Source: a virus (Duplodnaviria; Caudoviricetes). Taken from it: DNA of 58,941 nt. The stretch is taken from IMG/VR virus record IMGVR_UViG_3300037565_000164, positions 1-58,941 of that record. The stretch is one strand, 5' to 3'. Each line of letters starts with the position of its first letter. The first letter of the stretch is position 1. The position numbers and the translations under genes were made by a program. This document shows, piece by piece, positions 7,381 to 38,047 of this stretch. Below the pieces are notes generated by a model that saw only the letters and a program-made list of their open reading frames with translations, was not told where the DNA came from and did not search any database.

Positions 7381-7616
7381 TCGGGCAGATCCTTCTGAGC
7401 CACGAAACGCGCCACGAAGGCCGCCGCTGTCACCAGCGCGGTCGCCAGGGCCGTCACGATTGGGGGAAATGGGAGGGAGGCGCCGGCAAGGTTGAGCAGC
7501 ACTTCGAGAAAACTGAACAGCGCGGCCAGCGCCAACAGGCGCACGCTCCACGCATGGCGCAACACTTTGCGCCATTCGGCCATCAGTTTCAGAGTCGGTC
7601 GAGGGAAACGCGGCAT
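7377..7616 (-). CDS. Holin (2 TM segments)
   Basis: WRKVLRHAWSVRL...ARFVAQ pattern, directly upstream of the lysozyme. Confidence 0.75.
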   Translation of the reverse strand: MPRFPRPTLKLMAEWRKVLRHAWSVRLLALAALFSFLEVLLNLAGASLPFPPIVTALATALVTAAAFVARFVAQKDLPE

Positions 7617-7688
7617 GATTGCTGTCCTTGTTCGGAACAGCACGTCATGCGCTGCAGCACTCATACCGCGATTTTAGGAAACGGGGAA
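7617..7688 (-). promoter_or_regulatory. Late leader 1 (lysis operon): promoter plus GCGCATGACGTGC motif (7640-7652)
   Basis: TTCCCC-17-TATGAG, then the motif; the motif region pairs with GGACAGCA and UCAUGC, covering RBS and AUG. Confidence 0.8.
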
Positions 7689-19700: not shown

Positions 19701-21649
19701 GTCCGCGCCATCCGGTTGAAGGCGGTCCGCTCCCGGCCGTAGTCAAAGAGGCGCGCTGATACCTCATCAGGGAATTTCAGCGTGGTTGGCTCGCCCACCT
19801 CGTTCTGCAAGTCTCGAAGAAGCGGTCGCGTCTCCGGCGACGGCTCTGCGGGTGGCGGCGGCGGATTGTCCGCACGCTCCAGCGCTTCGACCTCGCGGCG
19901 CGACAGGTTGAGCGACGAGACGGCCGAGAGCGGCACCTGCAGCACTTCGCCATTGTCGTCGACAACCAGCGCCTCGCGCGACCCATCCTCATGGGTGATG
20001 TACTGCTCGACAGTGGCGTTGAACGGTTCCAGATCCGGGGCCGCCACCATGACGCGACTACCGGCGTCGGGCAAACCGCCGGCGCCCTGCGGCGTCACGG
20101 TCAGCGGGGCGGTTGTGGCCTGCGGGTCGGGCACCATCGGCGCGCCCTGCTCCGATTGCAACAGCCGCTTGCCCAGCACGCGCTCAGTACCGTCTTCGAG
20201 CACGACGCGCGCCATACCCGGATCGATGCCGCGCTGGTCCGGTGCCATCGTGACGAGCTGGCCATGCGCGGCGCCCGCCCCCATGCCCGGCAATGCCGGA
20301 TCGTTGACGATGTACCGCGCCCCCGCGCTCGGGTCGGTCGGCGCATTGGCGAGGCCGGTTTCGACGGCGCGCGACAAAGGGCCCTTGGGTGTGGGTTGCG
20401 GCGCCGGCATATCGGGCGTCGCCGGTCCTGTACCAGGAACGGGCGCGCTCATATCGGCGTTCGGCACCGGCATATCGGACGGCGGCGCCATTTCTTCGCG
20501 CTGGGACAAAGCCCCGGCCGCTGCGCCGGGAACGCTGCCGCCCAGCGCCCCCAGCAGGAAGTCGGCAAAGGTGCCGTCGGTCAGCGAGAGGTCCGTTCCG
20601 GCCCCGAGATTGGTGCCCATGGTCGAAGCGGCCGACTCGGCGGCCTCCTGGGCACCCTCTTCCAGACCGGACAGCCCAGCGCGGCCGGCAATGCGGGTGA
20701 CGATGTTGCGTCCGGCCAGCACGGCGGTGGCGGGGTCGATGATCTTGCCGGTGGCGAAACCACCAAGCGCGGAAATCGGGGCCGTCAGGGCAAAGGCGGC
20801 CTGTGCCGCAGCGGCCTTGGTTGCGGCCAGCGCTTCTTCATGGCTGCGCCCGGCGGCGATCTGCTCGCGGTAATAAGCCGATTCGCGCTCCAGCACGCCC
20901 GGCTCGGCCGCCATCTGGTCGATCAGCGCTTCCGCCTGCTGCGCGCCAGCGCCACCACCCTGCAATCCACCCACTACGGCGCCACCCGCTGGGCCCGCAA
21001 TGATCGAGGCGGCAATCACCGGTGTCATCTGGCCGAACACGTCCAGCGCCAGCGCGGCATAACCGACGGCGCTCGGATCTTCGCCCAGCGTCCATGTGCT
21101 GGGGTCCAGCAGGTCACCACCTGGTGTCGAATTGGCAATGGCCTCGCGGGTCGCAAAGCTCATACCCTCCTGGGTCTTTTCACCCAGCGTGTTGATCCAT
21201 TCCGCCGGGGCGCCCAGCGGATTGGCCTGGCCATACTCCGTGCCGAATATCTGGTTGATCAGCGGCGTGGTGGTGGCGTTGGTCAACCCGGTGATGGCAT
21301 TGCCAAGACCACCGACCACGGCGCCACTGCCTTTTGCGAGCGCGCCGCCCATCAGGCGGGCCGTATCTTCCAGCCAACCCGGCTGGCGGGCCTGCCAATC
21401 ACTTTGCCACTGCCCCAGCGCGCTTTCGTCGATCAGCTCATAGCGATCGGGTTCGGCCTCGCTTAGCGTTCCGAACTGCGCCTCCGTCGCCGCATTGGTC
21501 TGCTGGACCCGGGCGATTTCCGCGTTGCGCTGCTCTTCCTCCGGGGAGAGTTGCGGCGCGGCCGGGGCCTCGAACGGGTTCTGGCGATTGCGGTAGAGGC
21601 CGAAGGGGTCCGATGCCTTGAACGAGCCGGACTTCATGACGATGGGCAT
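7706..21649 (-). CDS. Giant DarB-like polyvalent virion protein (pyrophosphatase-like, N6-adenine MTase, SNF2-type helicase and PLxRFG domains)
   Basis: GNYKLGH..SIENPAG..HYGYI..GKDKDHIDVF (about 18530-18935); VLEPSMGIGNF and IGNWPF (about 15300-16310); AHEVGTGKT, DEVH, QRNGRGMRQGN; YFPLARFG (about 9750-9770). Confidence 0.9.
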   Translation of the reverse strand: MPIVMKSGSFKASDPFGLYRNRQNPFEAPAAPQLSPEEEQRNAEIARVQQTNAATEAQFGTLSEAEPDRYELIDESALGQWQSDWQARQPGWLEDTARLMGGALAKGSGAVVGGLGNAITGLTNATTTPLINQIFGTEYGQANPLGAPAEWINTLGEKTQEGMSFATREAIANSTPGGDLLDPSTWTLGEDPSAVGYAALALDVFGQMTPVIAASIIAGPAGGAVVGGLQGGGAGAQQAEALIDQMAAEPGVLERESAYYREQIAAGRSHEEALAATKAAAAQAAFALTAPISALGGFATGKIIDPATAVLAGRNIVTRIAGRAGLSGLEEGAQEAAESAASTMGTNLGAGTDLSLTDGTFADFLLGALGGSVPGAAAGALSQREEMAPPSDMPVPNADMSAPVPGTGPATPDMPAPQPTPKGPLSRAVETGLANAPTDPSAGARYIVNDPALPGMGAGAAHGQLVTMAPDQRGIDPGMARVVLEDGTERVLGKRLLQSEQGAPMVPDPQATTAPLTVTPQGAGGLPDAGSRVMVAAPDLEPFNATVEQYITHEDGSREALVVDDNGEVLQVPLSAVSSLNLSRREVEALERADNPPPPPAEPSPETRPLLRDLQNEVGEPTTLKFPDEVSARLFDYGRERTAFNRMARTMGESALDIQATTFKPDVAKALAAELGISPEGLAEVADDYRYRVERAARKGTAEAVSKMHAVNPEVLARWRTTETAASETEAETLAPDGDADAAWWDGLQPGARKALLAAAKVKRSEKSTWDKFSKQIKAKLAPLRAEMEGLDKARARSQALDSGLPDPEPDDSQADYTRWREGQESQLSALENGTDPLTADDEANIRRIASNLASETNFPDEADFVADRAVERARANRAALDDAADEAATSPANDRPEPSEAQKEAGNYKLGHHRIGGLDLSIENPAGSERKGQDKTGKPWSVTMKSHYGYIRGTVGKDKDHIDVFVKPGTEALDDTAMVTVVNQVNEAGQFDEHKVMLGFKSQSEAEAAYMENYTKGWKGLGSVGIATLGSFKSWLKDGDTTKPFSPNTVAPEASSEKTRRELTGTDQAAKPFAREELYRDVANMLRRNRALDPISALVAVDAKGSEILDAFDKHVGQHMAGSGGDRTSFQARGRKLEVLMPSADGKEPVRKTFQGGDLVTLLRNAVEAVHTAKAPEAGAVGSRGQSSTDSSAPDAALWDDPSYDTDREAAKAFKAGDRVEYTNGNFDPPRVFTGRVKKKQFRGFKPMGLLEVEVDGARDGGTHDVTIAASQLRAAPKERTSAPPAKAQEPDEAAVAPAEPEGKPTPDPFAKNKLFTADKVAAAKARLKSKMGQLNSGIDPEVLVDGMTIAGAYIEAGVRDFSDYAAQMTADFGDRIKPYLLSFWEGARNYPGLDTEGMTPTDEATRLHKALVTELPREEAAALGQELAPPKKRAKKTGRAGDRTLIQDFGVDSIDGWSYDGEGQETDFGVKGGVKDNFLRDATAYLNAVAGVLKEQGYAPSDDARGRPSKPVSKSESGPATSGDVSMTVWNPDTGIRIYAHITGSALRGMVPSTQSGVSIMFRVGLDTDRYATRATNQWAPVDLAAADLAALMGRAADRLAARGDKPLSADEKQRVITELKAEIARPALEPVENGNDPGTVQPELESQSGNRVGPDAGGAALRPQPDAARADSERLADRQPSDVEAPAAGGRGRPAGSSGATADVGGAGQSDLFGDAGDGRARAGRAQPSDAGAGERTGGTGTDLVTVKSPESVSPANQGPGNFHIDDPLAIVGGGQVARFEKNKAAIELANTLREEGRQATREEQTILAGYTGWGSFGQDLFQGTWSTPRPKAGWEARDAWLRDNLGQADWEGLQRSITNAHYTDPPTVLAMWDMVERMGFTGGRVLEPSMGIGNFFGMMPRALKDRSTLTGIELDPTTGAMAQLLYPDANISVMGYQDSKTPDNFYDLVIGNWPFEDTVIADRRYNRLSPFLHDYFYLKALDQVRPGGLVMGITSKGTLDKKDSGIRSELAKKAELVAAFRLPSGAFQDYAGTNVVTDIIVLRKRAEALGNSAGTGWIKSVPYMTPQGEEVSVNEYYLANPSHVVGQIEFGSGTTFRRPGLIVTRPDDMMAQMKRITALVPEEAYQADSRAGKQISYITNHTDDREGALVKSDKGLFIVRGEHLAPAADVAKYEVKDAKVTASRVAQLEALIDMRKAYAALIAAERNADDNPEPARKALKAQYDGFVAAHGTLSDSYGLGYLSKIDDPFYPALAALEVRDGKGVRQATILSQSTVRAARKIDKPTVSDAFVLARNSAINPSLEQIAEIAQKPAAEVKAELIEKGAVFELPGGDIVPADIYLSGNVREKMRQALAARDAGDANMQRNIDALAKVMPADVPYYAIEVQMGASWVPTRTYADYVAHMLNGDSAGVQVHYTAGRWRISIDNALKSRPEASAGFGTPVYSFQKLVNAAISNQTVTIRKEDHEGNVFVDEQATSEANEKIANIRSSFGEWLWSDLDRRVALEAEYNEVRNAYASPSFDGSFLSFEGMALSLGKGPFDLREHQANAIWRGLVMRRSLNAHEVGTGKTFTMGGLAVESRRYGIARKPLIFAHNANSASVAAEIQQMYPASKVLYIDNLAPAQIDVKMRQIANDDWDAVVVPHSLISRFALTEETLMALAAEEIAAIEAEAYAAAEDDGAKLTDAMLDDDEQLKKLRSPTAKDLVKMRNRIIETIKKQGQRASKDGAVSFEDLGVDMVLVDEVHEFKKPPFSTRMRIKGLNTQSSDRSIALSFLLRYIRGQQNGGNVHLFTGTPVTNTLTEVFHAMRYIMAEEMGEVGVDQWDGWFGSFAREVQDVELNAAAEYEAVNRLAGFINVPELRRMIGQYMDVVFADDMPEMQPRRTKSGKVLSDASLTEKERAELLNGRTEDAKDRPYKKVIVETADLTPAQQDAFAKIQGYAQRWRKMTGKEKREVMQQGGPESPIVTEGLAAKASFDVRLMDGEALAGQEGRADDEPNSKASRVVRNVLEIYRSHKQATQVIFTNAGISTTGTRSVGEVGAKTQQRFKVFSTVGDIVERLVQDGIPRDQIAVVDGSTSKEKRKEVADAMNRAEIRVVIGSTQSLGVGVNMQRNLRAMHHMDAPWMPGDLEQRNGRGMRQGNQWNTVLEYRYLTDRIDGRRWQVLAIKQRFINAFLKADDTTRVIEGDAASDEESDILTTFAEAAGDPRVLIREKLRKKIDQLNKKRRLHDTGIVDARRSAEKLDKWVEERRADQRRLAPVAEKVAELSKTMTGDGFAMTIEGQRFDKRSDARDALEELIENGKGVGPGMDPRHVGVFGGHPLEVRWARLSDTPRLTLVIDGEAIAGNLGTIASLEARLRNYSAELTDMGPQIADAERSSARLRAQAQEPFHQAKDLDRAENELIALEKDLAENPVPPPAWLRSGAPIDTEVQWNGSNHIVSGHRWNSEGWFVLASGDEGVIEMPYAEVRDAQGMALYEEREFAAPEVVEKAETPEGRKHSVGRSGRQSIEAVRAALRRGGMGNLAEALEAAGRLTIIETSDAGEGVQAWTDPDGSITLVADQIGDDPVAVLLHEAFHSGAHDLLGGKEWGSLMLRLAGLYRQFEQSKGKARDFFDAARARVSQAEAVAGALGEGLRVEEFAAYAIEEQASAPAALSKWVDDLLGAIKAWALRRFGRQLGAVTPAQLKAIAKAALSAAAPDGGPRPAMASRRRSIAARTTAAAAKIDKQSIIDAVAGKLTDLKPAALAAVPLNYFTELKRPGMVAVDQYMKVKRQMDAYRGGKHAEVDAVAQDWRKYARLGLAGADKTGRARAAALADLMHETTLAGIDPSLTDEETSSKPGYDALRARYLALPRSGQELYRKVRNTYRDQADELDMILLDNVRKTQEIAFRRAEDKYRERLDEIARSKMSKLDKSRAEAEAQRTYSQEMGKATYNMKARMTKLRMAFEASKVPAPYFPLARFGQYFVTVRDIEGNVLSFSRRESDTERRKLERDMKGAYPNHQVESGLMADKSSARDMMDPRIVAEIETLLGDASVDPRVMDMIWQRYLETMPDLSARKRFIHRKGVAGFDGDALRTFASNQFHAAHQMARLKYGLELSELTNQAVDQAKKADDPVRGMQLANELKKRHDWVMNPTGSRAVQAVTSSMFVWYLAASPAAALINMAQTPMMAMPILGARLGGLHKAAAAIGRASADVMRGKGSAVNAKLTEDEQWAMTQFYSSGMIDRTQAHDLAGVGEVGVAYSPVRQKVMSVISWAYHNVEVWNREVTALAAYRLAREQGHHQTKAVDIAHELTWMSHFDYSNASRARLMQGDFAKVVLTFQSHQLNMWYRLFRDIHQSFKGETAQARKEARYQLAGVMGMTGLFAGASGFFGYNVLMAILGLAFDDDDDPRGFKDEFEGHIIDLLGKDLGGIVLNGAPGHLTGIDLTTRLGMPDFFVRAPDGGAEGRDWFQELIVGAMGVVPSTMLNVVDGVGLAMSGNVVRGAEMVLPKALKDLMQAYRYASEGVLTRRGDVTLDRSQVNALDVLIEAIGFTPAKVAETYERMGALKDAEQKVLDERRALMNQFALAVALGDPDARRAAIEAIKAWNRKPYARMVPITGDSLTQSLKSRARNAAKRQDGVLIPDPELNHYLRELMPEHLY
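16408..16737 (-). CDS. Putative overprinted 109-aa protein nested in another frame of the giant gene
   Basis: GGAGA RBS before the ATG; helical, protein-like sequence, while the host frame here is a low-complexity linker. Confidence 0.55.
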   Translation of the reverse strand: MTQAPFSQSWKASLETEWAQMQAAPHFVHNQTLHERILNAWRTDSPQMWKRLRQAGAGGLLARVVQQRMWAERDSLISSGMPATDAREQAERNHLMLEPESELAEPVLT

Positions 21650-21737
21650 GCTGACGTGCTTTCCCACTTGAGTGGCAGGACAAGCAGCACGTCATGCGCC
21701 GCGGCAAACTTATACGACGGGTTCCGTCGGCCGACTA
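21650..21737 (-). promoter_or_regulatory. Late leader 2 (giant gene): promoter plus motif (21687-21699)
   Basis: TAGTCG-17-TATAAG; UGACGUGCU pairs perfectly with AGCACGUCA, 2 nt before the AUG. Confidence 0.8.
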
Positions 21738-23042: not shown

Positions 23043-24476
23043 CTAGGCGGCTGCGAAGCCGAGCCCGATCGGGGCTTCGGCACGACGAGGCGGCTTTCCA
23101 GCCGGACGCGACGCGGGAGGAGGTGGCGTGCGCCCGGCTGGAGCCCGGCGGCGGCCCGAAGCCCCCAAACCCACCGCCGATTCGATACTGTCGACTTTGA
23201 CCGCCAAGTCCTTGACGGCCTTCATGGTGAGGCCGATGGCGTCGCCGACCGGGATCGTCTTGCCATCCCCCTGCCCCGTCTCGGCCTGGAAGTCCTCGGC
23301 ATAGGTGCCAATGTGCTCGGCCGCGCCGTCGTCGCCATAGCCTTCCTTGTAGCGCCAGCTTTCGACGGGCAGTTCCTTGACCGCCTCAAGGGCTTCGCCC
23401 TCTGGGATTTCGGCCTTGTCTTCCTTGACCTCTTCACTGCTGAGCAGCAGACCGGCGCCGGTGCCCAGCGCCCCCATGAAGCCATTGAGATTGGCGTCAC
23501 TGCGGTTCTGGGCGTCGGCGTAGATCCCGTACTGGCTGTTGAACAGATTGTTGAGCGTGTTGGCGCCGCTGGCATTGCCCGATGTCGCCCCGGCAAAGCC
23601 TTGCCCAACAATACCGGTCGAACCGAGAAAGGCGTTGTTGGCGTTGAGCGCACCGGTCAGCCCCGTCCCCAGCGCGGCGGCCTCGCCGCCGGCGGCGGCC
23701 CCCATATTGGAGATAGCATTATTGCCCGCGCCAATGGCCATGCCGGCACCGGCATTGGACGCATTGAGCGCCGAGTTCTGGGTATTGGTGGCGCCTGCAG
23801 CCGTGTTGAGGGCCTGGGCGGACACACCCCGCCCTAGATTGGCAATATCGGCCTTGAGCGACAGCCCCTTGTCACGCACAGCGGTTCGGGCCGCATTGGC
23901 GGCGCCAGCAGTGGCCAGGCTCTCGCCCAAGTCACCGGCGCGACTGATCCCGCCCCAGCGCCCGGAATTGGGGTTGATACCCAGGCTCGCGGCTTCACGC
24001 TGCGCGGCAGATCGAGACGCGGCGCCCGCGGTGCGCACGTCGGCCATGGCGGCCGCTGCGGCCTCGGCCTGCCGTTCGGGCGAGCCATACGTGCTGGCCT
24101 CTTCGATGAACTGATCTTCGACTGGGCGATAGACGCTTTCATAGCGCTCTCGATCGGCACGCGCGATGCCGTCCTGCCAGTCGGCGGAATCGAGCTGCTT
24201 TTGTGCCACCTGTCGGCCCAGACCAAGCTGCTCCTCGGCGATCGCCAGAGATTTGTCTGTCTGGGCACGGGTATAGGCGCTGTTGTCCTCGGCCAGCTTG
24301 AGGGTTTTTTCGGCGACCGACTTCGTCAGCGCGTCGATTTCCGCTTGCCGATCCTTGGAGATGGCAAACTGATCCTTGGAAAACTGCAGCCATTCCTCGC
24401 CCAGCGCGATCTGGCGGTTGGCTGCATCACCGATGGCGGAACTGGGAGTTGGCGCGGCGCCGGGGCCTTTGGACAT
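23043..24476 (-). CDS. DNA-injection/pilot-like protein with a C-terminal peptidase S74-like (intramolecular chaperone) domain
   Basis: MSKG..AP start, Ala/Gly/Asn-rich body, SSEEVKED..LPVESWRYK..HIGTYAEDF. Confidence 0.7.
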   Translation of the reverse strand: MSKGPGAAPTPSSAIGDAANRQIALGEEWLQFSKDQFAISKDRQAEIDALTKSVAEKTLKLAEDNSAYTRAQTDKSLAIAEEQLGLGRQVAQKQLDSADWQDGIARADRERYESVYRPVEDQFIEEASTYGSPERQAEAAAAAMADVRTAGAASRSAAQREAASLGINPNSGRWGGISRAGDLGESLATAGAANAARTAVRDKGLSLKADIANLGRGVSAQALNTAAGATNTQNSALNASNAGAGMAIGAGNNAISNMGAAAGGEAAALGTGLTGALNANNAFLGSTGIVGQGFAGATSGNASGANTLNNLFNSQYGIYADAQNRSDANLNGFMGALGTGAGLLLSSEEVKEDKAEIPEGEALEAVKELPVESWRYKEGYGDDGAAEHIGTYAEDFQAETGQGDGKTIPVGDAIGLTMKAVKDLAVKVDSIESAVGLGASGRRRAPAGRTPPPPASRPAGKPPRRAEAPIGLGFAAA

Positions 24477-24554
24477 GGAGCTCTCCAGAAGTGAGAGCCG
24501 CACGTCATGCGCAGCTAGTCGAAACCTTATACAGCGAGCAGGCGGTCTTGGCGA
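24477..24554 (-). promoter_or_regulatory. Late leader 3 (ejection genes): promoter plus motif (24500-24512)
   Basis: TCGCCA-17-TATAAG; GACGUG pairs with CAUGUC and GCUCUC pairs with GAGAGC. Confidence 0.8.
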
Positions 24555-26984: not shown

Positions 26985-26990
26985 GATGCC

Positions 26991-28304: not shown

Positions 28305-28306
28305 GG

Positions 28307-29646: not shown

Positions 29647-29651
29647 GCGGT

Positions 29652-30287
29652 CTAGGCCTGCGAGTTTGCAGCGACGACGGCCTTGGCCTGATCGAGCCAC
29701 TGGTTGCGCTCGCTGGCGCCATCCAGTTCAAGCTCTGCGTCGATCGCGGCCAGTTGTTCGGCACTGAGCGCGGCCAGTTGCGCCACCGTGACGATGTCCT
29801 TGGTCGCCAACTTCTTGGCCGACGCCCTGCCCAACCCGGCCAGCGACTCGACCTTGGAGTCGGGACTGATGGCGGTTTCCTCGTCCGTGTCACTGGTGCC
29901 GCCCGACCCGTCCGGCTCAGTGGCCGCTTCGAGCAGACCCTTCAACTCGACGACTTCGTCATTGGCGAGCTTAATCTGCCCTTCCAGATCGCTGGCACGA
30001 GACGTTAGGGTGGCGTTCTCGGTTTCGAGCTCGGTGACACGCTTGGTCAGCGTCCCGTTGGCTTCTTCGAGCTCGGCGATGCGCGCTGCAGTTTCCTCAT
30101 CGGAAACTACTGCGACGACTGGCGCGTCCTCGACTTCCTCGTAAGCGGGAAGGCCGGTGAGGATAGCCAGGTGTTTGAGATTGTGGACCTGGGCGACAAA
30201 GCGCCCCTGCTCGTCCTTACTGAACAGGTAGGTTTCGCTGCCCAGAGTGGTTTCGGCCGGGCCGGTCATGCACTGTACGAGAGCCAT
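29652..30287 (-). CDS. Hypothetical protein with a coiled coil and a C-terminal helix-hairpin-helix-like domain
   Basis: Heptad region; LAGLGRASAKKL...TVAQLAAL. Confidence 0.7.
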   Translation of the reverse strand: MALVQCMTGPAETTLGSETYLFSKDEQGRFVAQVHNLKHLAILTGLPAYEEVEDAPVVAVVSDEETAARIAELEEANGTLTKRVTELETENATLTSRASDLEGQIKLANDEVVELKGLLEAATEPDGSGGTSDTDEETAISPDSKVESLAGLGRASAKKLATKDIVTVAQLAALSAEQLAAIDAELELDGASERNQWLDQAKAVVAANSQA

Positions 30288-30310
30288 TTCGGCCGCTCCT
30301 TGCTGGTTTC

Positions 30311-30352
30311 AAAAAAGCAAACGGGACACTGGGCTTAGGCCAGCGTCCCGTT
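30311..30352 (-). terminator. Rho-independent terminator
   Basis: AACGGGACGCTGG/CCAGTGTCCCGTT stem followed by TGCTTTTTT. Confidence 0.75.
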
Positions 30353-30391
30353 CACACTTGCTACGCGGGCCCCAAAGTGTTGCCGCGATCC

Positions 30392-30850
30392 TCAGGGGGC
30401 CATGTAGAAGAGCGTGAGGCCGAGAACGCCTTCGACAGCCGTTGCTGCGTCGGTCACCAGCTTAGCCCCCACACTGCGTTCACTGCCGGAGGCGGCGATG
30501 CGCAGCGCATCCTTCTCTGTGGTGCGAGCGACGCCGCCGCCCTGAGAGATGGTGGTGCCGTCGAAAAACTCATCGCCACAGGTGCGGGCGGACTCGGTGT
30601 CACCAGGTTCGCCGGACATTAGTCCGAAATCCCAAACGATAGCCGGAGTGCCGCTGTCCAGGTCATCACTGTCGGCGATTACATCAACAGGCACACAGCC
30701 CGATGGCAGAGAGCCAAACTCGATGATGTCGTTTTCGGCGATATCGGTGGGCACAGTGAAAGTCATGCGACAGGCGACGACGACGCCGGCCCCCAGAGGG
30801 TACGGCTGCGACTTGGCGCCCTTCGCGTAGTCAGACTGGTGGATGGTCAT
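30392..30850 (-). CDS. Capsid decoration/cement-like protein
   Basis: Follows the major capsid gene; DVIADSDDLDSG motif; beta-rich. Confidence 0.65.
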   Translation of the reverse strand: MTIHQSDYAKGAKSQPYPLGAGVVVACRMTFTVPTDIAENDIIEFGSLPSGCVPVDVIADSDDLDSGTPAIVWDFGLMSGEPGDTESARTCGDEFFDGTTISQGGGVARTTEKDALRIAASGSERSVGAKLVTDAATAVEGVLGLTLFYMAP

Positions 30851-30876
30851 GTCATTCTCCGAGTGACGGGGTTGCG

Positions 30877-30905
30877 AAAACCCGGCGCCCGGTCAGGGCG
30901 TCGGG
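30877..30905 (-). terminator. Hairpin plus TTTT after the major capsid gene
   Basis: CCCGACGCCC-TGACC-GGGCGCCGGG-TTTT. Confidence 0.55.
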
Positions 30906-30916
30906 CTGGGCGTCAG

Positions 30917-32017
30917 TTAGCCGTTGGGATCGGCGGCGGCCGTGTCGAGAGAGAGCACGCCGAAGTCGCGGTCTTTGAAGCGGGACTTCTTCACGCCGAC
31001 GATGATGCCGCCGATGACCTGCTTTTCGTTGCCGTGGTCGGCCTCGTCCTCACTCCACTGGAAGCGCATGCCGCCCTCGGCGCCGTAGGCGATAGCGCCA
31101 GCCTGGCGTCCGAGGAACAGGGCGCGACCGGCTTCGACATTGCTGCCGGAGCCATAGTCGGAGAAGCGAACGCCGCTCGAATGCTTGTGCAGCACGACAT
31201 TCTTGATCATGCCCAGACCACCCTTGAAGATCGGGTTGTTCCGGCCTTCAGCCGATGCGGCCGCCTTCTGGATATCGATCCAGCCGGTTGTGTCGGCCGT
31301 GCGCAGGTCATGCTCCTGGAACGGGTTCATGACGCAGACATAGTGCGGCTCGCCATTGATATCGATCGGCATCATGTTTGCCTGCTCGGGATCAGTGGCG
31401 GCCAGCATGCCTGCCTTGACCTCGGCCTTTTCGATCAGCGATTTGCTCATCTTGTCGTTGGCATCGAGGTCGCCCTTTGACGTCGCGTCGCCGCCATAGA
31501 GCAGGTGCCCGGCGTCGGGGGCCTCGATTGGATTCTCGGCGTGGCCGGCCCAGGTGGGTGGGGTGATAAAGCCAGCATTGCTGCCGCGTGCGCCGGAGAG
31601 ATAGATGAAGATCATCTCGTCCATGAACTTGGCCCAGTATTCCGACAGGCGGTTGCGGGCCACGGTGCGCAGATTGTGGATGGTGCGCTTCTGGGTCATC
31701 TTGCCACCGGCGCTGACGCCGTGGCGCATCTGGTCGATGCTGATCTGATCCGAGAAGAACTTGAGCTTTTCTTCCTTGCCCTCAAGCCGGTTGTCGCCGG
31801 TCGTGGGCATGCCGCGCAGTTGCACAGACAGGTCGATCTGGATGGTGTCGCCCTTGGCGGCTTCCAGATCGGTCAGGCGCTGAATGGGCGCGTTGTCATC
31901 GTTCTGGATGAACTTCTTCACCCAGTATGACTTGTCATTGGTCTGCAGGAAAAGCGAGCCCGACCACTTCTTGACTGCGCGGGGATCGCCAAACGGAATG
32001 GTCGTGGGACCGGCCAT
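30917..32017 (-). CDS. Major capsid protein, N4-gp56/DUF4043 family
   Basis: AVKKWS, GDTI..DL..QL, LEGKEE.L, IDQMRHGV, NPIFKGGLG, LFLGRQAG, DFGVLSLDT. Confidence 0.9.
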   Translation of the reverse strand: MAGPTTIPFGDPRAVKKWSGSLFLQTNDKSYWVKKFIQNDDNAPIQRLTDLEAAKGDTIQIDLSVQLRGMPTTGDNRLEGKEEKLKFFSDQISIDQMRHGVSAGGKMTQKRTIHNLRTVARNRLSEYWAKFMDEMIFIYLSGARGSNAGFITPPTWAGHAENPIEAPDAGHLLYGGDATSKGDLDANDKMSKSLIEKAEVKAGMLAATDPEQANMMPIDINGEPHYVCVMNPFQEHDLRTADTTGWIDIQKAAASAEGRNNPIFKGGLGMIKNVVLHKHSSGVRFSDYGSGSNVEAGRALFLGRQAGAIAYGAEGGMRFQWSEDEADHGNEKQVIGGIIVGVKKSRFKDRDFGVLSLDTAAADPNG

Positions 32018-32096
32018 GACATGCTCCTAGAAAGGGTTTGAGCACGTCATGCGCTGTGGTGTTGTTACGCATACTGCAATTCGCGGCGCCTGGCAA
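32018..32096 (-). promoter_or_regulatory. Late leader 4 (capsid operon): promoter plus motif (32042-32054)
   Basis: TTGCCA-17-TATGCG; AUGACGUGCUC pairs with GAGCAUGUCAU (11 bp, one G-U), covering RBS and AUG. Confidence 0.85.
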
Positions 32097-32170
32097 TGTG
32101 TGTGGTAAAGCGCCGGTTTACTTGTGCGAGATGTCTGTCAAGTCGAGCACTTATCGCGCCCGCGCCGGTA

Positions 32171-33316
32171 CTACTCGAACACGTAGATCGGTGAACTGGT
32201 CACGTTGTACGTCGCTGACAGCGTGATGGGGGCACCATAAACATCGGCCCCACTGGAATTGCCCGATAGATCCACGTTGCCGCTTTCGCCATCCCTGCGC
32301 CAGTAGATGCGACCGCTTTGCCCGTTCTTGGTGAAGTCGATGAACATAAGTCCCTGGCTGCGGGACTTGCGGAGACGAGCGCCGGAAAGCTGAGCAGTCA
32401 TGTAGGCGTAGGCGTCACCGGCAGGATCTAGCAACGCGGTGTTTTCCCGGTTCAGCAGATCGAGCTGCGAGAACGCGAACTCATCAGGCCCCCAGTGCAC
32501 ATAAGTGCGGGCACCAGCCAGCAGCGCGACGAGATATGATCGAACGATGTATGCTGCTGCAAAGGCGTCGGGCAGTTGAACATCCGTCTCCGGGGCGGGT
32601 GTCCATTGGTTGTTCTGCTGTTCACCATTGTCGTACCAGGCGTGCCATCCGCCCTCGGTCATATGCAGCGGGTAATGCGCAATGCCGTGCTTGGCCATCA
32701 CAGCGCGGTATTTTAGAGCGAGCGGCAGCATCTCCTCGGGCTGGCTGGGCTGCACATAGGGATGGAATCCCACAGCGTCGAAGTGCCCGGCGCCATTGGC
32801 AGTCAGGAAGTCATCGAGATAGTCGTGGCCCGGCGCCGTGGTGCTGTTGGAGACGATCTGAATATTGGGCACCACGGCCTTCATGGCATTGAAGGCCCCG
32901 ATTTGGTAAGTGAATCCGGTCGGCTTGTCGCCGGGCCAAAAACTCCCGTCGTTCCACTCGTTGCCGCCGCCGACGCGACCTCGACCGCTGCCAAGCTGGG
33001 CCGCATAGCGCTGGGCAAACTCGGTGTACCGCGTAATCCAAAGCGTATATTCGGGGACTTCACCACCAAAGCCGCCGCCGATGTCGTAGTGCAGCACAAG
33101 GTCATTGGCGTCGCAGAGGGCGAACAAGGCGTCTAGCACGGACCAGTTGCCGTCCTTGATCGCAGCCCATCCGACGCCGGGGGATGGCAGATCGGCCGGG
33201 CGGAGCAAGCCATAACCCAACTCGAAGTGGTTCGGGATGTGCCCTGCTTGTGACGATAGGGGGCGCCGCACCTGCACGCCGAAAAAGTCCGCTTCTACTG
33301 TCCTTGCGAGGTCAAA
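32171..33316 (-). CDS. Glycoside hydrolase, clan GH-A-like TIM barrel; start uncertain, possibly reached by a +1 frameshift
   Basis: FFG, GNEWN, FDAVGFHPY, LHMTEGGW, AAAYIVRSYL motifs. Confidence 0.7.
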   Translation of the reverse strand, partial: FDLARTVEADFFGVQVRRPLSSQAGHIPNHFELGYGLLRPADLPSPGVGWAAIKDGNWSVLDALFALCDANDLVLHYDIGGGFGGEVPEYTLWITRYTEFAQRYAAQLGSGRGRVGGGNEWNDGSFWPGDKPTGFTYQIGAFNAMKAVVPNIQIVSNSTTAPGHDYLDDFLTANGAGHFDAVGFHPYVQPSQPEEMLPLALKYRAVMAKHGIAHYPLHMTEGGWHAWYDNGEQQNNQWTPAPETDVQLPDAFAAAYIVRSYLVALLAGARTYVHWGPDEFAFSQLDLLNRENTALLDPAGDAYAYMTAQLSGARLRKSRSQGLMFIDFTKNGQSGRIYWRRDGESGNVDLSGNSSGADVYGAPITLSATYNVTSSPIYVFE

Positions 33317-34328: not shown

Positions 34329-34329
34329 C

Positions 34330-34638
34330 TTAGGCCGCCGTCCATTCGAACTTGTCGCCAGGCTCGACCAGTACGTCAACCACGGTCAGCGCCGGCACGA
34401 ACAGGCGCGGGCTTGCACCCGCGTCCGGGTTTCCGCCGATCGAGATGTAAGCGTCCACGGCCGAGTAGATCTCGAACACGGCGCTGGCATCGGTCAAGGT
34501 GGGGGCGGCATTGCTGCTGACACTGCCGTCGGCAGGGGCCTCGGACCATTGAGGCTTGCCCAGCACCGGCAGATGGCGCCGGTTTTCCGGGGGAGCGGCA
34601 ATCTTGCAGCAGGTGACATGAAGACCAGAAAAAGCCAT
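34330..34638 (-). CDS. Small virion protein, possible spike base
   Basis: 102 aa, beta-rich, GGAG RBS, directly upstream of the spike-like gene. Confidence 0.55.
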   Translation of the reverse strand: MAFSGLHVTCCKIAAPPENRRHLPVLGKPQWSEAPADGSVSSNAAPTLTDASAVFEIYSAVDAYISIGGNPDAGASPRLFVPALTVVDVLVEPGDKFEWTAA

Positions 34639-34712
34639 GACGAATTCTCCTTGCAGGCGAGCACGTCATGCGCTGATGCACTCTTGATACGCGAATTCGT
34701 GCCGTGTGCCAA
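34639..34712 (-). promoter_or_regulatory. Late leader 5 (spike genes): promoter plus motif (34661-34673)
   Basis: TTGGCA-17-TATCAA; CAUGACG pairs perfectly with CGUCAUG, which contains the AUG. Confidence 0.8.
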
Positions 34713-34718
34713 CGGGCT

Positions 34719-36977
34719 TCAGCCGGACAGCGAGCGCGGCGGGCCGTCCTCGTCGCCATAGGTGTGGCGCACCTTGCCATTCATGGCCGTGGTTGGCATG
34801 CGATGGCCGCTGCTGTTCTGATACCAGCGCTCTCCGCGATTGATGGCGGCCAGCGCATGCGCATTGTGGTTGGACGGGCTGGCGTTCGCTGCACGAATGG
34901 ACGCCTGATCGAGCGGCTTGCGCAGCGACGCCGAGCCGCTGAGCCCTGTCCCGCCGCCGAGACCGATCATGTTGCGCAACCCCTCGACGATGCCCGGCCC
35001 AAACCCCTCTTCGGGAATGCCCAGCGCTCCACGGATGCCGCCCAGAAGTCCTTCCCCGATTCCTTCTTCGGGCAGGCCAATGGCCGTGCGGATATCTCCG
35101 GCCAGGCCATGATCGCTACGCTCGGGTGTGGGTTTTGGAGCGGGCTGGGTACGCAGCCACTCGGGGTTCAGCTCGACCACCGTGCGGGTGCGCAACGTCG
35201 GCCCCATGGTCTCGGCTGTCTTTGCGCCGGCGGCACGCTGCCCCTTGTTGTCGCGGCTCACCGAATAGGTCATCTCGCCAAGCGGAATGGCGTCGCGCTT
35301 GTTAGCGGCGGGCTTCCCACCCTCCTGCCCCGCATAGGTCTGCGGGATCTCGATTGTCTCGGTGCGCGTGATGTACTTCGGTACCTCGGCCGGAGATGTT
35401 GCGGCCGCCGCGCCAGGGGCCGCCGGTGTTGGTGCTGCACCAGTGCGTGGCCGGGTGCCAATATTGGGTGGCGGCGCTGTTGGCGCGATCTGTTCCGGGC
35501 GCGGCCGGGCGCCGACACCTGCAGCCGTCGCCGGTGGTGGCGCTGCGGGGCTAGCGCGCTCCTGGCCAGCATAACTCTGCTGCGCCATGGCGAGCTGGGT
35601 GCGTGACGGACTTGGGGCAGGATCTGGGCGGCTTGGCGCGGGCTCCCGCGCCGGCGGCGACGTCGGCCCGCGCTCCTGGCCGGCAAAGGACTGGGGAGGT
35701 GCCGCCCGCGACACCGGCCTTGGGGCCATGATCTTGGCCGGCCCGGTTTCCCGTCCGGCGAAGCTTTGGGGCTGACGTTCGAGCGTCGCGCGACGCTGCG
35801 CAGTTTCGGCTTGTCGGGTCAGGGTAGTCGCTGCCTCCGGCGTGACGTTGCGCGGCATCGGCACCTGACCCGCTACGGGCTCGGCGGTCCGCTGCACGCC
35901 AGGGCGCCGAGCGACTGGGCCGCGCTCCTGGCCCGCGAAACCGCCATCGCTCGGCACTGGCCGCTGTGGCTGGCGCATGGCGGTGGCGGGAATCGGGTCT
36001 GGCGCCGTCTCGATCGCTGCATCCGGGGTCAGAGAGCCCAGTCCCCGCGTCACGGAAGTGCGCACCAGATCCTCGTCGGGGATATGCCGATACCGGACAT
36101 TGCCATCTGCATCGAGCTGCGGCGTGTGGGCGTTCGGCCGGGTCGCCGCCACTTCCTCTGGGCGCAGCGTCGGCTGCCGCGAAAACCCGAGCCCGATGAC
36201 GTCGGCCATTTCCGGCATCGTGCCGACATCATCCTGCGCGATGATACCGGTCGGCCCAATGGTTGGGAGACTGCGGGCGGGGGCTTGCTCGGTTGGTGCC
36301 TCAGGCCGCTCCGACGCAGGCGTCGGCATGCTCACTTGCTGCGGCGGGCGCTGGTCGCGCGGCGTGGGCATCGTGGGCTCGATGCGAGCCGGGGGCGCCA
36401 CGTCCATTTCCGTCGCGACGATGTTGGGCACCTCTCCTGGCGGAAGCTTCACACCATCGGCAGTGTAAAAGTCACCCGCGAGTTGCGCTTCTACCGGGGT
36501 ATAGCCGTCGGTGGTGCCGTGGTAGTGGATAGACTGCCCGGAGCCGTATCGAGGTCCATCCAGCGCGTCGATCCACTGCCGATTCTTCGCGTCGCTATAA
36601 AGCGGGTTGGCGTAGTGCAAATTGCCGCCGACCGAGCTCGGGGCGCCACCAATACGGCTGTTGACCCAATCATTGACGGCCGAGCGAGCGACGTCCGGCA
36701 CAATGCCATCAGGTACGCGTTCGACGGAGCCCCAGACTTCATAGCCCCGATCGCGCGGACCGTTAATGGCCGAAAACTGCCGGTCCTGATTGGCGACACC
36801 AGCTATGGTGTCAGGAAACTGGGGCGAAGCAACTCGGTTGAGGACGGTGTCGACAATACCTGCGACCTGGCGCTGATACATGTCTGGATCGCGCTGCGCG
36901 AGTCGGTGATCGGCCTCGGTTGCGACGATGCGCTCAAGGTAGATGCGATCCTGCAGAGAGATGTTGATGGGCGCCAT
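34719..36977 (-). CDS. Cell-wall hydrolase (SleB/Hydrolase_2-like N-terminal domain) with a long Pro/Ala-rich tail
   Basis: RIVATEA..VDTVLNRVASPQFPDTIAGV..QFS..HYANP. Confidence 0.8.
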   Translation of the reverse strand: MAPINISLQDRIYLERIVATEADHRLAQRDPDMYQRQVAGIVDTVLNRVASPQFPDTIAGVANQDRQFSAINGPRDRGYEVWGSVERVPDGIVPDVARSAVNDWVNSRIGGAPSSVGGNLHYANPLYSDAKNRQWIDALDGPRYGSGQSIHYHGTTDGYTPVEAQLAGDFYTADGVKLPPGEVPNIVATEMDVAPPARIEPTMPTPRDQRPPQQVSMPTPASERPEAPTEQAPARSLPTIGPTGIIAQDDVGTMPEMADVIGLGFSRQPTLRPEEVAATRPNAHTPQLDADGNVRYRHIPDEDLVRTSVTRGLGSLTPDAAIETAPDPIPATAMRQPQRPVPSDGGFAGQERGPVARRPGVQRTAEPVAGQVPMPRNVTPEAATTLTRQAETAQRRATLERQPQSFAGRETGPAKIMAPRPVSRAAPPQSFAGQERGPTSPPAREPAPSRPDPAPSPSRTQLAMAQQSYAGQERASPAAPPPATAAGVGARPRPEQIAPTAPPPNIGTRPRTGAAPTPAAPGAAAATSPAEVPKYITRTETIEIPQTYAGQEGGKPAANKRDAIPLGEMTYSVSRDNKGQRAAGAKTAETMGPTLRTRTVVELNPEWLRTQPAPKPTPERSDHGLAGDIRTAIGLPEEGIGEGLLGGIRGALGIPEEGFGPGIVEGLRNMIGLGGGTGLSGSASLRKPLDQASIRAANASPSNHNAHALAAINRGERWYQNSSGHRMPTTAMNGKVRHTYGDEDGPPRSLSG

Positions 36978-37053
36978 GCCAGTCCCCTGATGGAGTACCA
37001 GCACGTCATGCGCCTGCGACGCGAACCATAGTCCATCCTGGACGGATTGGCGA
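36978..37053 (-). promoter_or_regulatory. Late leader 6 (hydrolase): promoter plus motif (37001-37013)
   Basis: TCGCCA-17-TATGGT; GUGCUGGU-A-CUCC pairs with GGGG-ACUGGCAU, covering RBS and AUG. Confidence 0.8.
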
Positions 37054-37082
37054 TACGCAGGTCTGCTGCTATGGTCGCGGGC

Positions 37083-37391: not shown

Positions 37392-37397
37392 GCGTCC

Positions 37398-37604
37398 TCA
37401 GCGCCAGATCAGGTGGCGCATAAGGCCCGCACCAAGCCCTCCGGCGGCAACTGCCAGGCCGAGTGTGGCTTCTGGCCAGAACAGCGCGCCGACAATAGCG
37501 CCGACACCAGCGCCCATGCCGACCGCCATGCCATAGCCGACGAACATGAACCAGCTTTCGCTGACCGCTTCGACGCGGGCATTACTGATGGGCAAGTGTC
37601 TCAT
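37398..37604 (-). CDS. Small membrane protein (2 TM, Gly-rich)
   Basis: GAGG RBS; hydrophobic Gly-zipper-like segments. Confidence 0.55.
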   Translation of the reverse strand: MRHLPISNARVEAVSESWFMFVGYGMAVGMGAGVGAIVGALFWPEATLGLAVAAGGLGAGLMRHLIWR

Positions 37605-37816: not shown

Positions 37817-38038
37817 CTATTCGGCCGGTTCGGGGTCCGGCACCGAAACATGGCGGCTTTCGCCGGTCAGGCCGGTGGCATAGCGCTCCGGCATGACGCC
37901 GGTTTCATTCATCTTGATCGGCGAGATGGCCGTCGCGATGACCAGGCGAACGCGCTGCCCGCTTTTCTCTTTGACCTTGATCGACACCTGGTCGCCGATT
38001 TCCAGAATGTCCCCAACCTTGACGTCGCGCGTGATCAT
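37817..38038 (-). CDS. Divergent CsrA/RsmA-fold RNA-binding protein
   Basis: MITRDVKVGDILEIGDQVSIKVKEKSGQRVRLVIA aligns without gaps to CsrA [35 protein letters not shown]. Confidence 0.75.
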   Translation of the reverse strand: MITRDVKVGDILEIGDQVSIKVKEKSGQRVRLVIATAISPIKMNETGVMPERYATGLTGESRHVSVPDPEPAE

Positions 38039-38047
38039 CGGGTGCCC

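Follow-up and report, generated by a model that had tools for sequence, protein, structure and literature searches.

A recurrent 13-nt box at the head of six late operons of a provirus: a predicted two-state leader with a phage CsrA-like protein as its candidate reader

Six late transcription units of a tailed-phage provirus carry the same short box close to the place where their mRNAs would begin, and sequences downstream of each box are predicted to pair back towards it and the start codon. Two questions arise from this arrangement: what the pairing does to translation initiation, and which protein might read the box. The DNA analysed here (hereafter, the window) is a complete IMG/VR provirus record of 58,941 nucleotides (Duplodnaviria; Caudoviricetes). 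The genomes that match it best are MAGs of Oricola, Xanthobacteraceae and Fluviicoccus (one each). The features discussed below are collected in Table 1.

Table 1. Positions of the boxes, leaders, pairing arms and genes in the window.
Feature	Position	Strand	Details
Box copies (13-mer)	7640-7652, 21687-21699, 24500-24512, 32042-32054, 34661-34673, 37001-37013	-
Holin leader	7613..7688	-	-35-like 7683-7688; -10-like TATGAG 7660-7665; box 7640-7652; AUG 7614-7616
Holin leader 3' arms	7620-7627; 7613-7618	-	GGACAGCA over SD; UCAUGC over AUG
Holin gene	7377-7616	-	PHROG holin, E=4.1e-9; DUF7940
Giant-protein leader	21647..21737	-	-35-like 21732-21737; -10-like TATAAG 21709-21714; box 21687-21699; AUG 21647-21649
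Giant leader 3' arm	21652-21660	-	AGCACGUCA; two bases 5' of AUG; 9/9 Watson-Crick
Giant-protein gene	7706-21649	-	4647 aa
477-aa virion protein ('pilot') leader	24472..24554	-	-35-like 24549-24554; -10-like TATAAG 24526-24531; box 24500-24512; AUG 24474-24476
'Pilot' leader arms	24493-24498/24480-24485; 24472-24477	-	spacer hairpin; 3' arm CAUGUC over AUG
'Pilot' gene	23043-24476	-	PHROG virion structural protein; Peptidase_S74 domain
Capsid leader	32015..32096	-	-35-like TTGCCA 32091-32096; -10-like TATGCG 32068-32073; box 32042-32054; SD AGGAG in spacer; AUG 32015-32017
Capsid box	32042..32054	-	GCGCAUGACGUGC; 5' arm of predicted closing stem, or own 4-bp hairpin GCGC/GUGC, loop AUGAC
Capsid 3' arm	32016..32026	-	GAGCAUGUCAU; spans SD end, spacer and AU of start codon; 11 bp with 32040-32050, one G-U
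Capsid gene	30917-32017	-	Pfam Phage_capsid_3, E=2.7e-67
102-aa ORF ('spike base') leader	34636..34712	-	-35-like TTGGCA 34707-34712; -10-like TATCAA 34684-34689; box 34661-34673
102-aa ORF leader 3' arm	34636-34642	-	CGUCAUG; includes AUG 34636-34638; 7/7 pairs
102-aa ORF	34330-34638	-
752-aa cell-wall hydrolase-domain protein leader	36975..37053	-	-35-like 37048-37053; -10-like TATGGT 37025-37030; box 37001-37013
Hydrolase leader 3' arm	36976-36987	-	GGGG-ACUGGCAU; reaching AUG 36975-36977; 12/12 pair, 4 G-U
Hydrolase gene	34719-36977	-	Pfam Hydrolase_2
CsrA-like gene	37817..38038	-	73 aa; last recognisable gene of box-less portal operon

The 13-mer GCGCATGACGTGC has six copies in the window, on the same strand every time. 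Its 11-mer core gives no forward and six reverse matches, the reversed control gives none, and at two mismatches or fewer the box is matched 12 times against 3.7 expected. In the leaders, the box (GCGCAUGACGUGC) lies immediately 3' of a putative sigma70-like promoter, whose -35/-10-like elements are recognised from their conservation, and transcription would start just 5' of the box, within a few bases. The distance from the -10-like element to the box varies (7-13 nt), and that from the box to the ATG of the late gene is 22-24 nt in five of the six leaders and 37 nt for the giant gene. The gap between box and SD (8-12 nt) offers no room for a second promoter-like element. An E. coli-type promoter scan of positions 21500-38200 called none of the five promoter-like elements there; its rule excludes their -10 hexamers, whose last base is G, A or T. 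A regular expression of our own found the -35/-10-like pair in 45 of 81 distinct upstream regions of relatives (38 of them with a 17-bp spacer), and the 36 regions failing it include several with a visible TTGCAA-N17-TAATNA. No match at gathering score was obtained for the whole window in Rfam 15, and a look for public RNA runs covering positions 30900-38100 listed none. A terminator scan of positions 21500-38200 listed none of the five leader stems, and a UUUUU run follows the 102-aa ORF leader only.

Two folds are predicted for each leader. The preliminary description had proposed that a stem peculiar to each leader hides the ribosome-binding site and/or the AUG, and quoted nine duplexes; all nine lie at the places given (65/65 positions pair, 7 of them G-U) and within the RNAfold minimum-energy structures, and the pairing register indeed differs among the six leaders, as does the spacing between arms (13 to 26 nt). 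Compared with 200 dinucleotide shuffles per leader, RNAfold z-scores are -3.40 for the holin, -3.32 for the hydrolase, -3.02 for the capsid (-21.4 kcal/mol) and -2.34 for the 'pilot' leader, and weak for those of the 102-aa ORF (-1.35) and the giant gene (-1.11). The start codon is predicted to be paired in 5/6 box leaders vs 11% of 65 other genes of this phage, and in the -43..+21 segment P(AUG unpaired) is <=0.05 in 6/6 vs the same 11%; the unconstrained giant leader has a value of 0.44. When the box head is joined to the start region of another gene, P(AUG unpaired) <=0.05 is found in 20.8% of 390 chimeras vs 5/6 natives. Part of the AUG-hiding effect is built in: the box contains the self-complementary CAUG, and C at -1 is common.

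Not every leader contributes equally. In a ranking of the strict box-to-start duplex against 65 other start regions of the genome, the capsid duplex (-22.3 kcal/mol, with arm GAGCAUGUCAU) and the giant-gene duplex beat 65/65, and those of the holin (rank 4) and the 102-aa ORF (rank 5) are in the top 8% (Mann-Whitney p = 0.013 for box leaders vs controls). The hydrolase (rank 26) and the 'pilot' (rank 51 of 65) are not above chance; their stems rely on spacer-internal or G-U-rich pairing. The claim that all six leaders pair with the box thus holds beyond chance for four. The AUG and the SD-AUG spacer are what is chiefly hidden: the SD, with P unpaired of 0.19-0.47 against a mean of 0.44 in other genes, is not clearly less accessible, and the proposed hiding of the ribosome-binding site is not supported. 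The labels 'pilot' and 'spike base' are not backed by the searches made here: the former gene matches a virion structural protein and the 102-aa ORF has no match among Pfam and PHROG families.

The alternative fold is the box's own hairpin of 4 bp (G-C, C-G, G-U, C-G), with a loop AUGAC in 6/6 copies in the window and a predicted energy of -5.2 to -7.3 kcal/mol with flanks. The long stem, favoured over it by 4-13 kcal/mol, is the predicted thermodynamic default. Forcing the box hairpin, a check that had been suggested beforehand, or keeping the box unpaired raises P(AUG unpaired) from 0.00-0.01 to 0.47-0.94 (from 0.44 to 0.71 in the giant leader). In silico, then, the leaders behave as expected of a ymdA-type switch: the start region is sequestered when unconstrained and freed when the box hairpin forms or the box is blocked.

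The arrangement is conserved in relatives. A search of viral contigs with the single capsid protein yielded only 3 loci, and an alignment-based search yielded 80 related contigs, from which 47/49 distinct capsid leaders contain GCG[CT]A-N-G..GTGC (the box or a variant). An initial 14-mer scan had returned mostly chance single matches, with only L047, L044 and L023 as true relatives. Three ~59-kb relatives have 5 box copies each, on a single strand, and the box also precedes the capsid gene in the cultured phages JC1, Skulduggery, SopranoGao and Itty13. The second loop position is free (U, A, G, C), even inside a single genome, and many relatives have true GGA loops (AGGAC, AGGAU, AGGAG, UGGAU). 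The sense strand folds more stably than the antisense in 33/48 capsid leaders (p = 0.015). In a set of 41 leaders of 9 genomes the mean fold z is -1.7 with the AUG fixed in the shuffles; P(AUG unpaired) is <0.05 in only 26, and the open ones include those of holin type in G001, G003 and G004 and those of divergent operons in G006 and G008. This set leaves out site L278 of G007, for which no start passed the rule, and includes L274 of G008, whose start is probably mis-assigned.

In the relatives, the two arms change together. From 33 capsid leaders aligned with MAFFT, RNAalifold recovered only the invariant 4-bp box hairpin, with no covariation; since the long-range arms pair in different registers, they have no single consensus structure, and pairing partners were therefore counted leader by leader over 80 distinct leaders. 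Box position 6 forms U-A in 40 leaders and G-C in 12, and box position 9 forms C-G in 29, U-A in 8 and U-G in 3. The 12-mer box variant CAUGAGUG stands opposite the arm CACUCAUG, and the insertion variants CAUGGACGUG and CAUGAACGUG stand opposite arms one base longer, that is, with paired indels. The box hairpin itself is kept by compensation in leaders L126 (GGGC..GUCC), L205 (CCGC..GUGG) and L293 (ACGC..GUGU). Among 19 same-register leaders, 87.3% of cells pair vs 17-48% with the partner slid, a count that favours structure because these leaders were picked for sharing one register; pair 11-43 is C-G in 14, U-A in 3 and U-G in 1 of them, and a shuffle control tells nothing for this subset, in which the 5' arm is nearly constant. 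Single mismatches in the box-to-start stems of relatives are G-U in 41 cases vs A-C in 7.

Swapping box variants among leaders gave a mean of -14.9 kcal/mol for native pairs, -12.0 for a different variant and -15.2 for the same variant from another leader. For three variant classes, a box other than the native one gave the better fit. In the AAGAC-type capsid leaders an AUGA box fits better (-19.4 vs -11.3 kcal/mol for the native), and the arm of L224 pairs best, among the boxes tried, with GCGUAGGACGUGC of L187 (-26.1 vs -10.6 kcal/mol). In most relatives the arm follows the box variants right to the AUG, and in some it is shifted onto the SD. The matched changes on both arms argue that selection acts on the RNA to keep a closed state in which the start codon is occluded, in agreement with what had been suggested from the six leaders of the window, and the excess of G-U mismatches and the better sense-strand fold point the same way.

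A candidate reader of the box is encoded nearby. The 73-aa product of the CsrA-like gene (Table 1) matches PHROG 'CsrA-like regulator' (E=5.7e-6), and a profile of 13 phage homologues matches RsmE 2jpp over positions 1-62 (E=1.8e-10) together with eight more CsrA chains; 12/13 of these homologues match PF02599 (Pfam CsrA) at E<=0.01. The window protein itself scores 18 bits against PF02599 (E=0.0028), under the 27-bit cut-off and over residues 6-35 only, short of the RNA-contact end. CsrA proteins contact RNA through conserved residues of the C-terminal strand (VHREE, including Arg44); the RsmE HRE segment lies, in the profile alignment, opposite non-identical, gapped positions. A two-copy complex prediction scored 0.31, against a mark of 0.42, and is counted neither for nor against the candidate. 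As in CsrA-type operators, the box presents its loop on a hairpin of ~4 pairs; GGA is absent from that loop in the window. The gene is present in 32/32 capsid-related phage records (a protein search found it in 21 and a profile in the other 11), and since gene and box occur together in all 32, with no informative negatives, this co-occurrence is inseparable from shared ancestry. The four cultured phages named above share the arrangement of csrA-like gene and box, and their genes (JC1 gp47, Skulduggery gp12, SopranoGao gp25 and Itty13 gp22) are annotated as CsrA-like or carbon storage regulator genes.

The following mechanism is proposed, to which we give about an even chance of being right: the leaders would be two-state devices whose default is the closed state, and binding of the phage CsrA-like protein to the box would open them, as CsrA does at ymdA. 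Each of the six late transcription units would begin, a few bases from its 5' end, with a 13-nt box capable of two folds: (i) alone, it would form a 4-bp hairpin with a loop A-N-G-A-(N), that is, the shape of a CsrA-type site; (ii) alternatively, it would be the 5' arm of a stem whose 3' arm comprises the SD-AUG spacer and the start codon, and initiation would be blocked. The CsrA-like protein, coming from the box-less portal operon just upstream, would bind the box as this emerges from the polymerase and prevent the downstream pairing, and the capsid, virion, giant-protein and lysis genes would thereby be translated together. The analysis shows the stems, how their arms covary, that the two folds exclude each other in silico and that the CsrA-like gene accompanies the box; the transcription start, binding of the box by the protein and an activating effect are inferred. 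The preliminary description had assigned the closed state to the lysogen, as a means of keeping lysis and virion proteins untranslated. A temporal gate during lytic growth is at least as likely, since the arrangement occurs in the four cultured phages and a list of csrA+ phages includes GP4, 'lytic' according to a title in the reference list of that source (PMC7366521).

The same RNA elements could act with the opposite sign. A CsrA-like dimer would then bridge the box hairpin and a second site and repress late translation in the manner of CsrA at glgC, and the long stem would be secondary; the second site would be A-N-G-A in the SD or C-AUG-N-C at the start. Repression via two sites 10-63 nt apart is described as the commonest CsrA mechanism (PMC7652899), and the SDs of the box leaders contain AGGA or GGGA 20-25 nt from the box loop, so that a dimer could equally bridge box and SD. 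All six late-gene starts are C-AUG-N-C, which mirrors the loop context of the box, but C is found at -1 in 29/51 other ATG starts of the genome and at both -1 and +5 in 17/51, and is thus commonplace. Repression would also leave the covariation of both box-to-start arms unexplained, and it would add, for no evident reason, to a default block on the phage's most abundant protein; it is considered unlikely. A role of the stem as a 5'-terminal stabiliser against 5'-end-dependent decay, with the CsrA-like protein either adding to it (as at flhDC) or uninvolved, is judged quite unlikely. The short distance from the -10-like element to the box means that the stem would take in the putative mRNA 5' end. 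For flhDC mRNA, CsrA binding close to the 5' end is described as protective (PMC7652899), and pairing of the AUG might simply follow from the self-complementary CAUG, as AUG is hidden in 21% of chimeras too. However, mere stabilisation would not call for pairing of -17 to -26 kcal/mol over the initiation region, nor for an arm that tracks the box variants to the AUG in most relatives and onto the SD in others.

Three further explanations were considered. A DNA-level role, in which a DNA-binding repressor or a late activator uses the box as an operator at +1 and the downstream complement as a second half-site, would account for 13 invariant bp whose place with respect to six promoter-like elements is fixed, and inverted repeats do exist in DNA as well; it is made very improbable by the variable arm spacing and register, by the excess of G-U over A-C mismatches, by a distance that is nearly fixed to the AUG and variable to the -10-like element, and by the invariant G-U in the box's own stem, owing to which the box is no DNA palindrome. 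In genes e, soc and 49 of phage T4, the 5' arm lies upstream and the start region lies in the 3' arm. The arm architecture of the six leaders is the same, and one could imagine that read-through or early transcripts include the box and are closed, and that late ones start inside or after it and are open. This is highly doubtful, since the -35/-10-like pair is kept just 5' of the box (with the 17-bp spacer in 38 of 45 scoring regions, 81 examined), so that the transcripts would include it, and the box-SD gap has no space for a second promoter-like element. Finally, the stems could be a product of chance in a GC-rich genome, with the palindrome CAUG in the box and a free choice of register. The 'pilot' and hydrolase leaders do not exceed the controls, a fifth of the chimeras hide the AUG, and the 19-leader subset was chosen for one register. 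Against this, 5/6 natives hide it, the capsid and giant leaders beat all controls, the mean z of the 41 leaders stays negative with the AUG fixed, and independent lineages show matched substitutions and indels; chance is scarcely credible and appears largely refuted by the comparative data.

A wider reading may be put forward tentatively, as possible rather than probable: a large podophage clade (the Lessievirus, Lastavirus, Skulduggeryvirus and Ittyvirus phages sampled here, PBC5-like phages and many uncultured relatives) would time its late programme post-transcriptionally, and not via a late sigma factor or activator, with a private, diverged CsrA as master key. Host-type promoters would make late mRNAs that are each born closed, and a diverged CsrA with a relaxed A-N-G-A specificity would open the capsid, tail, giant-protein and lysis messages. 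Were this true, the phages would have an orthogonal Csr system, working also in hosts without a chromosomal csrA. In any case, a box at late-operon heads that covaries with the start region offers a concrete cis target and a testable mechanism for phage csrA genes. Should that mechanism be right, phage late-gene control would here be exerted mainly at translation, and a compact orthogonal protein-RNA switch of ~70 aa and 13 nt would become available.

Phage-borne csrA has been catalogued since at least 2020 and is annotated in many podophages. In three publications, such genes are presented as morons or possible host manipulators of unknown role (PMC9144972, PMC7366521, PMC11879866). In the one functional test found, on another phage, PTXU04, knock-down of the csrA homologue led only to small plaques, and the role of the gene is said there to be one that 'has not been previously tested' (PMC11879866). 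Targets of phage CsrA-like proteins of the kind proposed here were not found described in the main texts of the openly readable literature. Like the Bcep22-like and related podophages, the window has a csrA-like gene of the same protein family after the portal gene and a virion-protein gene. In JC1, Skulduggery, SopranoGao and Itty13 this gene directly precedes the major capsid gene, whereas two extra box-led units intervene here.

The closest parallel is ymdA of E. coli, which CsrA activates by destabilising an SD-sequestering hairpin (PMC7492729); RsmA-phz2 and CsrA-moaA are also described in a review (PMC7652899). As at ymdA, a leader hairpin would block ribosome binding, a CsrA-type site lies in an arm of the hairpin, and binding, as here proposed, would free initiation. 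The differences are several: (i) the regulator would be phage-encoded and diverged, and the system is described here from sequence and predicted folds; (ii) one nearly invariant box recurs at six operons, at their putative extreme 5' end; and (iii) the loop is AUGAC, not GGA, and the AUG rather than the SD is mainly covered. A CsrA site consists of GGA in the loop of a hairpin with <=4 pairs, the SELEX consensus being RUACARGGAUGU (PMC7652899). The box resembles canonical CsrA/RsmE operators (RsmE-hcnA, PDB 2jpp) in its 4-bp stem, 4-6 nt loop and conserved G-A, but it departs from them in its variable second loop position and in the lack of GGA noted above for the window, and its loop is one base below the most frequent six of SELEX hairpins (PMC7652899).

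Another comparison is offered by phage Mu. For a Com-like protein, the coverage here consisted of Pfam and PHROG scans of the neighbouring ORFs. Com of phage Mu is a small RNA-binding protein that binds just 5' of the translation-inhibition stem of mom and opens that stem. As in mom, the SD and start codon of phage late genes would lie inside a stem; unlike Com, a zinc-finger protein acting on a single gene, the CsrA-fold protein of this phage would serve six operons.

By its gene content, the window, a complete provirus record from IMG/VR (58,941 bp; G+C about 63.6%), is a Bcep22/PBC5-like podophage; its capsid DNA is 67-74% identical to that of PBC5, Atu_ph08, Itty13, BcepIL02, Skulduggery and others. 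It carries six copies of a 13-mer, GCGCATGACGTGC (the box), all on the minus strand, and each is followed, 22-24 nt downstream (37 nt for the giant gene), by the ATG with which a late gene or operon begins. Upstream of each box lie a -35-like hexamer (TTGCCA, TTGGCA, TCGCCA and weaker forms), exactly 17 bp and then TATnnn, which ends 7-13 nt ahead of the box, so that the box, judging from conservation, would lie near mRNA position +1 to +7. An E. coli-type promoter scan called none of the five promoter-like elements in its range; of 81 distinct upstream regions from relatives, 45 contained such a pair by our own -35/-10 scoring, and in 38 of these the spacer was 17 bp. The box-to-AUG distance is almost fixed and the box-to--10 distance variable, which points to an RNA-level function near the initiation site.

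Several neighboring features deserve mention. The terminator-like site directly after the gene next to the capsid gene is the strongest of the late region, and these two genes may form a high-output sub-unit. The 95-aa "holin" ORF of the ORF list has its ATG (7664) within a -10-like TATGAG (7660-7665); a start at 7616 is likelier, as it has an SD (AAGGA) and lies at the customary distance from the box. The gap that separates the portal/CsrA-like operon from the first box-led promoter holds a plus-strand ORF (read by eye), convergent with that operon, whose N-terminus is hydrophobic and resembles a signal peptide; it is possibly a moron; for this stretch the ORF list gives 37047-37391 and 37148-37423.

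Features of the window and box pairs of related genomes (G-numbers)
Feature	Position (strand)	Remarks
Box-led: holin-led lysis cassette		
Box-led: giant protein	7706-21649	4,647 aa
Box-led: 477-aa virion protein	23043-24476	
Terminator-like site	30317-30355 (-)	16 pairs, then TTTTTT
Gene next after capsid gene	30392-30850	
Box-led: capsid operon, major capsid gene	30917-32017	Phage_capsid_3
Box-led: 102-aa ORF	34330-34638	
Box-led: 752-aa protein		Cell-wall hydrolase domain
Possible moron	37083-37394 (+)	
CsrA-like ORF, candidate box reader	37817-38038	Pfam CsrA E=0.0028 (below cut-off); PHROG "CsrA-like regulator" E=5.7e-6
123-aa ORF	46225-46596 (-)	Tad2-like (Thoeris anti-defence 2) domain, E=6.3e-7
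Divergent box pairs	G007:19780/19866; G008:4728/4810; G006:8712/8794; G009:52997/53080; G013:3863/3949	PBC5-like relatives

The duplexes quoted in the preliminary description, which gave each leader its own stem, are all present: 65 of 65 positions pair (7 as G-U), all within RNAfold minimum-energy structures. Against dinucleotide shuffles, whole-leader folding is strong for holin (z -3.40), hydrolase (-3.32), capsid (-3.02) and the 477-aa protein (-2.34), and weak for the 102-aa ORF (-1.35) and the giant gene (-1.11). In a -43..+21 window, the AUG has a probability of being unpaired of at most 0.05 in all six leaders, versus 11% of 65 other phage genes. When the box was grafted onto the start regions of those 65 genes, the AUG was hidden in 20.8% of the 390 chimeras versus five of the six natives; hence, AUG hiding is partly built into the box, which holds the self-complementary CAUG (C occupies -1 in 29 of 51 other ATG starts). 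The strictest test paired the box plus 2 nt with -16..+6 and ranked the result against the 65 control start regions: capsid and giant surpassed all controls, holin ranked 4 and the 102-aa ORF 5, while hydrolase (rank 26) and the 477-aa protein (rank 51) were not outstanding, their stems relying on spacer-internal or G-U-rich pairing. The claim that all six leaders pair with the box thus stands as regards the stems, but the direct duplex is outstanding only in those four; likewise, of the RBS and/or AUG said to be hidden, the AUG and spacer are predicted to be so, but SD accessibility is not clearly reduced relative to other genes.

Alternatively, the box can form a hairpin of its own (stem GCGC/GUGC, in which the G-U is invariant, and loop AUGAC; -5.2 to -7.3 kcal/mol with flanks). 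When this hairpin was forced, or the box held unpaired to mimic bound protein, the probability of an unpaired AUG rose from 0.00-0.01 to 0.47-0.94 (giant leader: from 0.44 to 0.71), in line with the closed default state proposed earlier. The closed form is predicted to be 4-13 kcal/mol more stable than the open one; from both results, the long stem and the box hairpin are predicted to be mutually exclusive, with the closed form as default.

A 14-mer scan of viral contigs retrieved three phages of ~59 kb (G001, G003 and G004; G+C 50-56%), with five box copies apiece on one strand, ahead of capsid, virion-protein, giant-protein and lysis genes. An alignment-based capsid search yielded 80 loci, among which 49 leaders are distinct; GCG[CT]A-N-G..GTGC is present in 47 of these, and near variants in the other two. 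The variants comprise AUGAC, AUGA-, AGGAC, AGGAU, AGGA-, AAGAC, AAGAU and two insertion forms. The box precedes the capsid gene in the cultured phages JC1 (GCGCAGGAGGUGC), Skulduggery (GCGCUGGAUGUGC), and SopranoGao and Itty13 (both GCGCAAGACGUGC); an Oricola MAG prophage has it as well. PBC5-like relatives carry back-to-back TTGCAA promoters flanked by two boxes that point away from each other, ~85 bp apart, and thus a box leads a divergent operon as well as the capsid operon.

Among relatives, the pre-AUG arm tracks the box: (i) CAUGACGUG stands opposite CACGUCAUG; (ii) CAUGAUGUG opposite CACAUCAUG or CGCGUCAUG; (iii) CAUGAGUG opposite CACUCAUG; (iv) GGACGUGC opposite GCACGUCC; and (v) AGGAGUGC opposite GCACUCCU; insertion-form boxes face arms longer by one base. 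Tallied across 80 distinct leaders, position 6 of the box forms U-A in 40 and G-C in 12, and position 9 forms C-G in 29, U-A in 8 and U-G in 3. In 19 leaders picked for sharing one register, 87.3% of cells pair, versus 17-48% with slid partners. Three divergent leaders show compensatory changes in the box hairpin as well (GGGC..GUCC, CCGC..GUGG, ACGC..GUGU). G-U pairs greatly outnumber single A-C mismatches (41 versus 7), and of 48 capsid leaders, 33 fold better as the sense than as the antisense strand; both observations favour the RNA rather than the DNA level. Other results speak against the closed-leader reading. For three box-variant classes, the box of another class fits better than the native one; from a MAFFT alignment, RNAalifold recovered the invariant hairpin only; and 41 leaders of nine genomes gave a mean z of -1.7, with the AUG closed in only 26 and open in several. 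In one related capsid leader (L224, IMGVR_UViG_2582581241_000002), the arm GGCACGUCCU is the perfect complement of a AGGACGUGCC box, the actual box being GCGCAAGAGUGCC; the box seems to have changed recently without compensation in the arm.

The candidate reader is encoded at the end of the box-less portal operon, some 0.8 kb ahead of the first box. Used as a profile, 13 phage homologues hit the solved structure of RsmE (2jpp) at E=1.8e-10; PF02599 is matched by 12 of them. All 32 capsid-related records carry the gene (21 by protein search, 11 more by profile), and it is absent from two unrelated records picked up via a chance 14-mer match; as the sampled relatives provide no informative negatives, shared descent could also account for its co-occurrence with the box. 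In JC1, Skulduggery, SopranoGao and Itty13, an annotated CsrA-like gene lies immediately ahead of the capsid promoter and box. According to PMC7652899, the known CsrA site presents GGA in a hairpin loop closed by up to 4 pairs (consensus RUACARGGAUGU). It closely matches the GGA-loop box variants of relatives, whereas the window loop is AUGAC. Given this loop, and since the second loop base varies freely within single genomes, the phage proteins probably read A-N-G-A. In genome G008, a box (GCGCAAGAGUGC, 39347-39358; locus L284) lies in a longer hairpin without a start codon after it, beginning ~48 nt past the CsrA-like match (39406-39543); such a site might serve autoregulation or act as a decoy.

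The data are best fitted by a two-state leader with the CsrA-like protein as its candidate reader, a proposal to which we give an even chance: the protein would open the closed leader and late-gene translation would be activated. The same protein might instead bridge box and SD and repress the late genes, as AGGA or GGGA occurs in the SDs, close enough to the box to be bridged; a repressor, however, does not need the closed helix that, on the sequence evidence, is under selection, and for this reason activation is favoured and repression appears rather improbable. By analogy with flhDC, protection of the 5' end of late mRNA is possible. A lysogen-specific purpose, as suggested in the preliminary description, would be speculative, and the module is also found in the cultured phages named above.

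Phage csrA genes are already known and annotated, and have been termed morons or possible host manipulators (PMC9144972; PMC7366521). In phage PTXU04, csrA knock-down gave small plaques, the role being stated there as previously not tested (PMC11879866); this is the sole functional datum in the literature found. The article texts searched contain no account of late-leader cis targets for phage CsrA. The proposed leader opening resembles the action of Com at Mu mom. The two-state leader also resembles CsrA at ymdA, as presented in PMC7492729. CsrA anti-sequestration is, as a mechanism class, already known; a phage-wide regulon based on the box would represent a new form.
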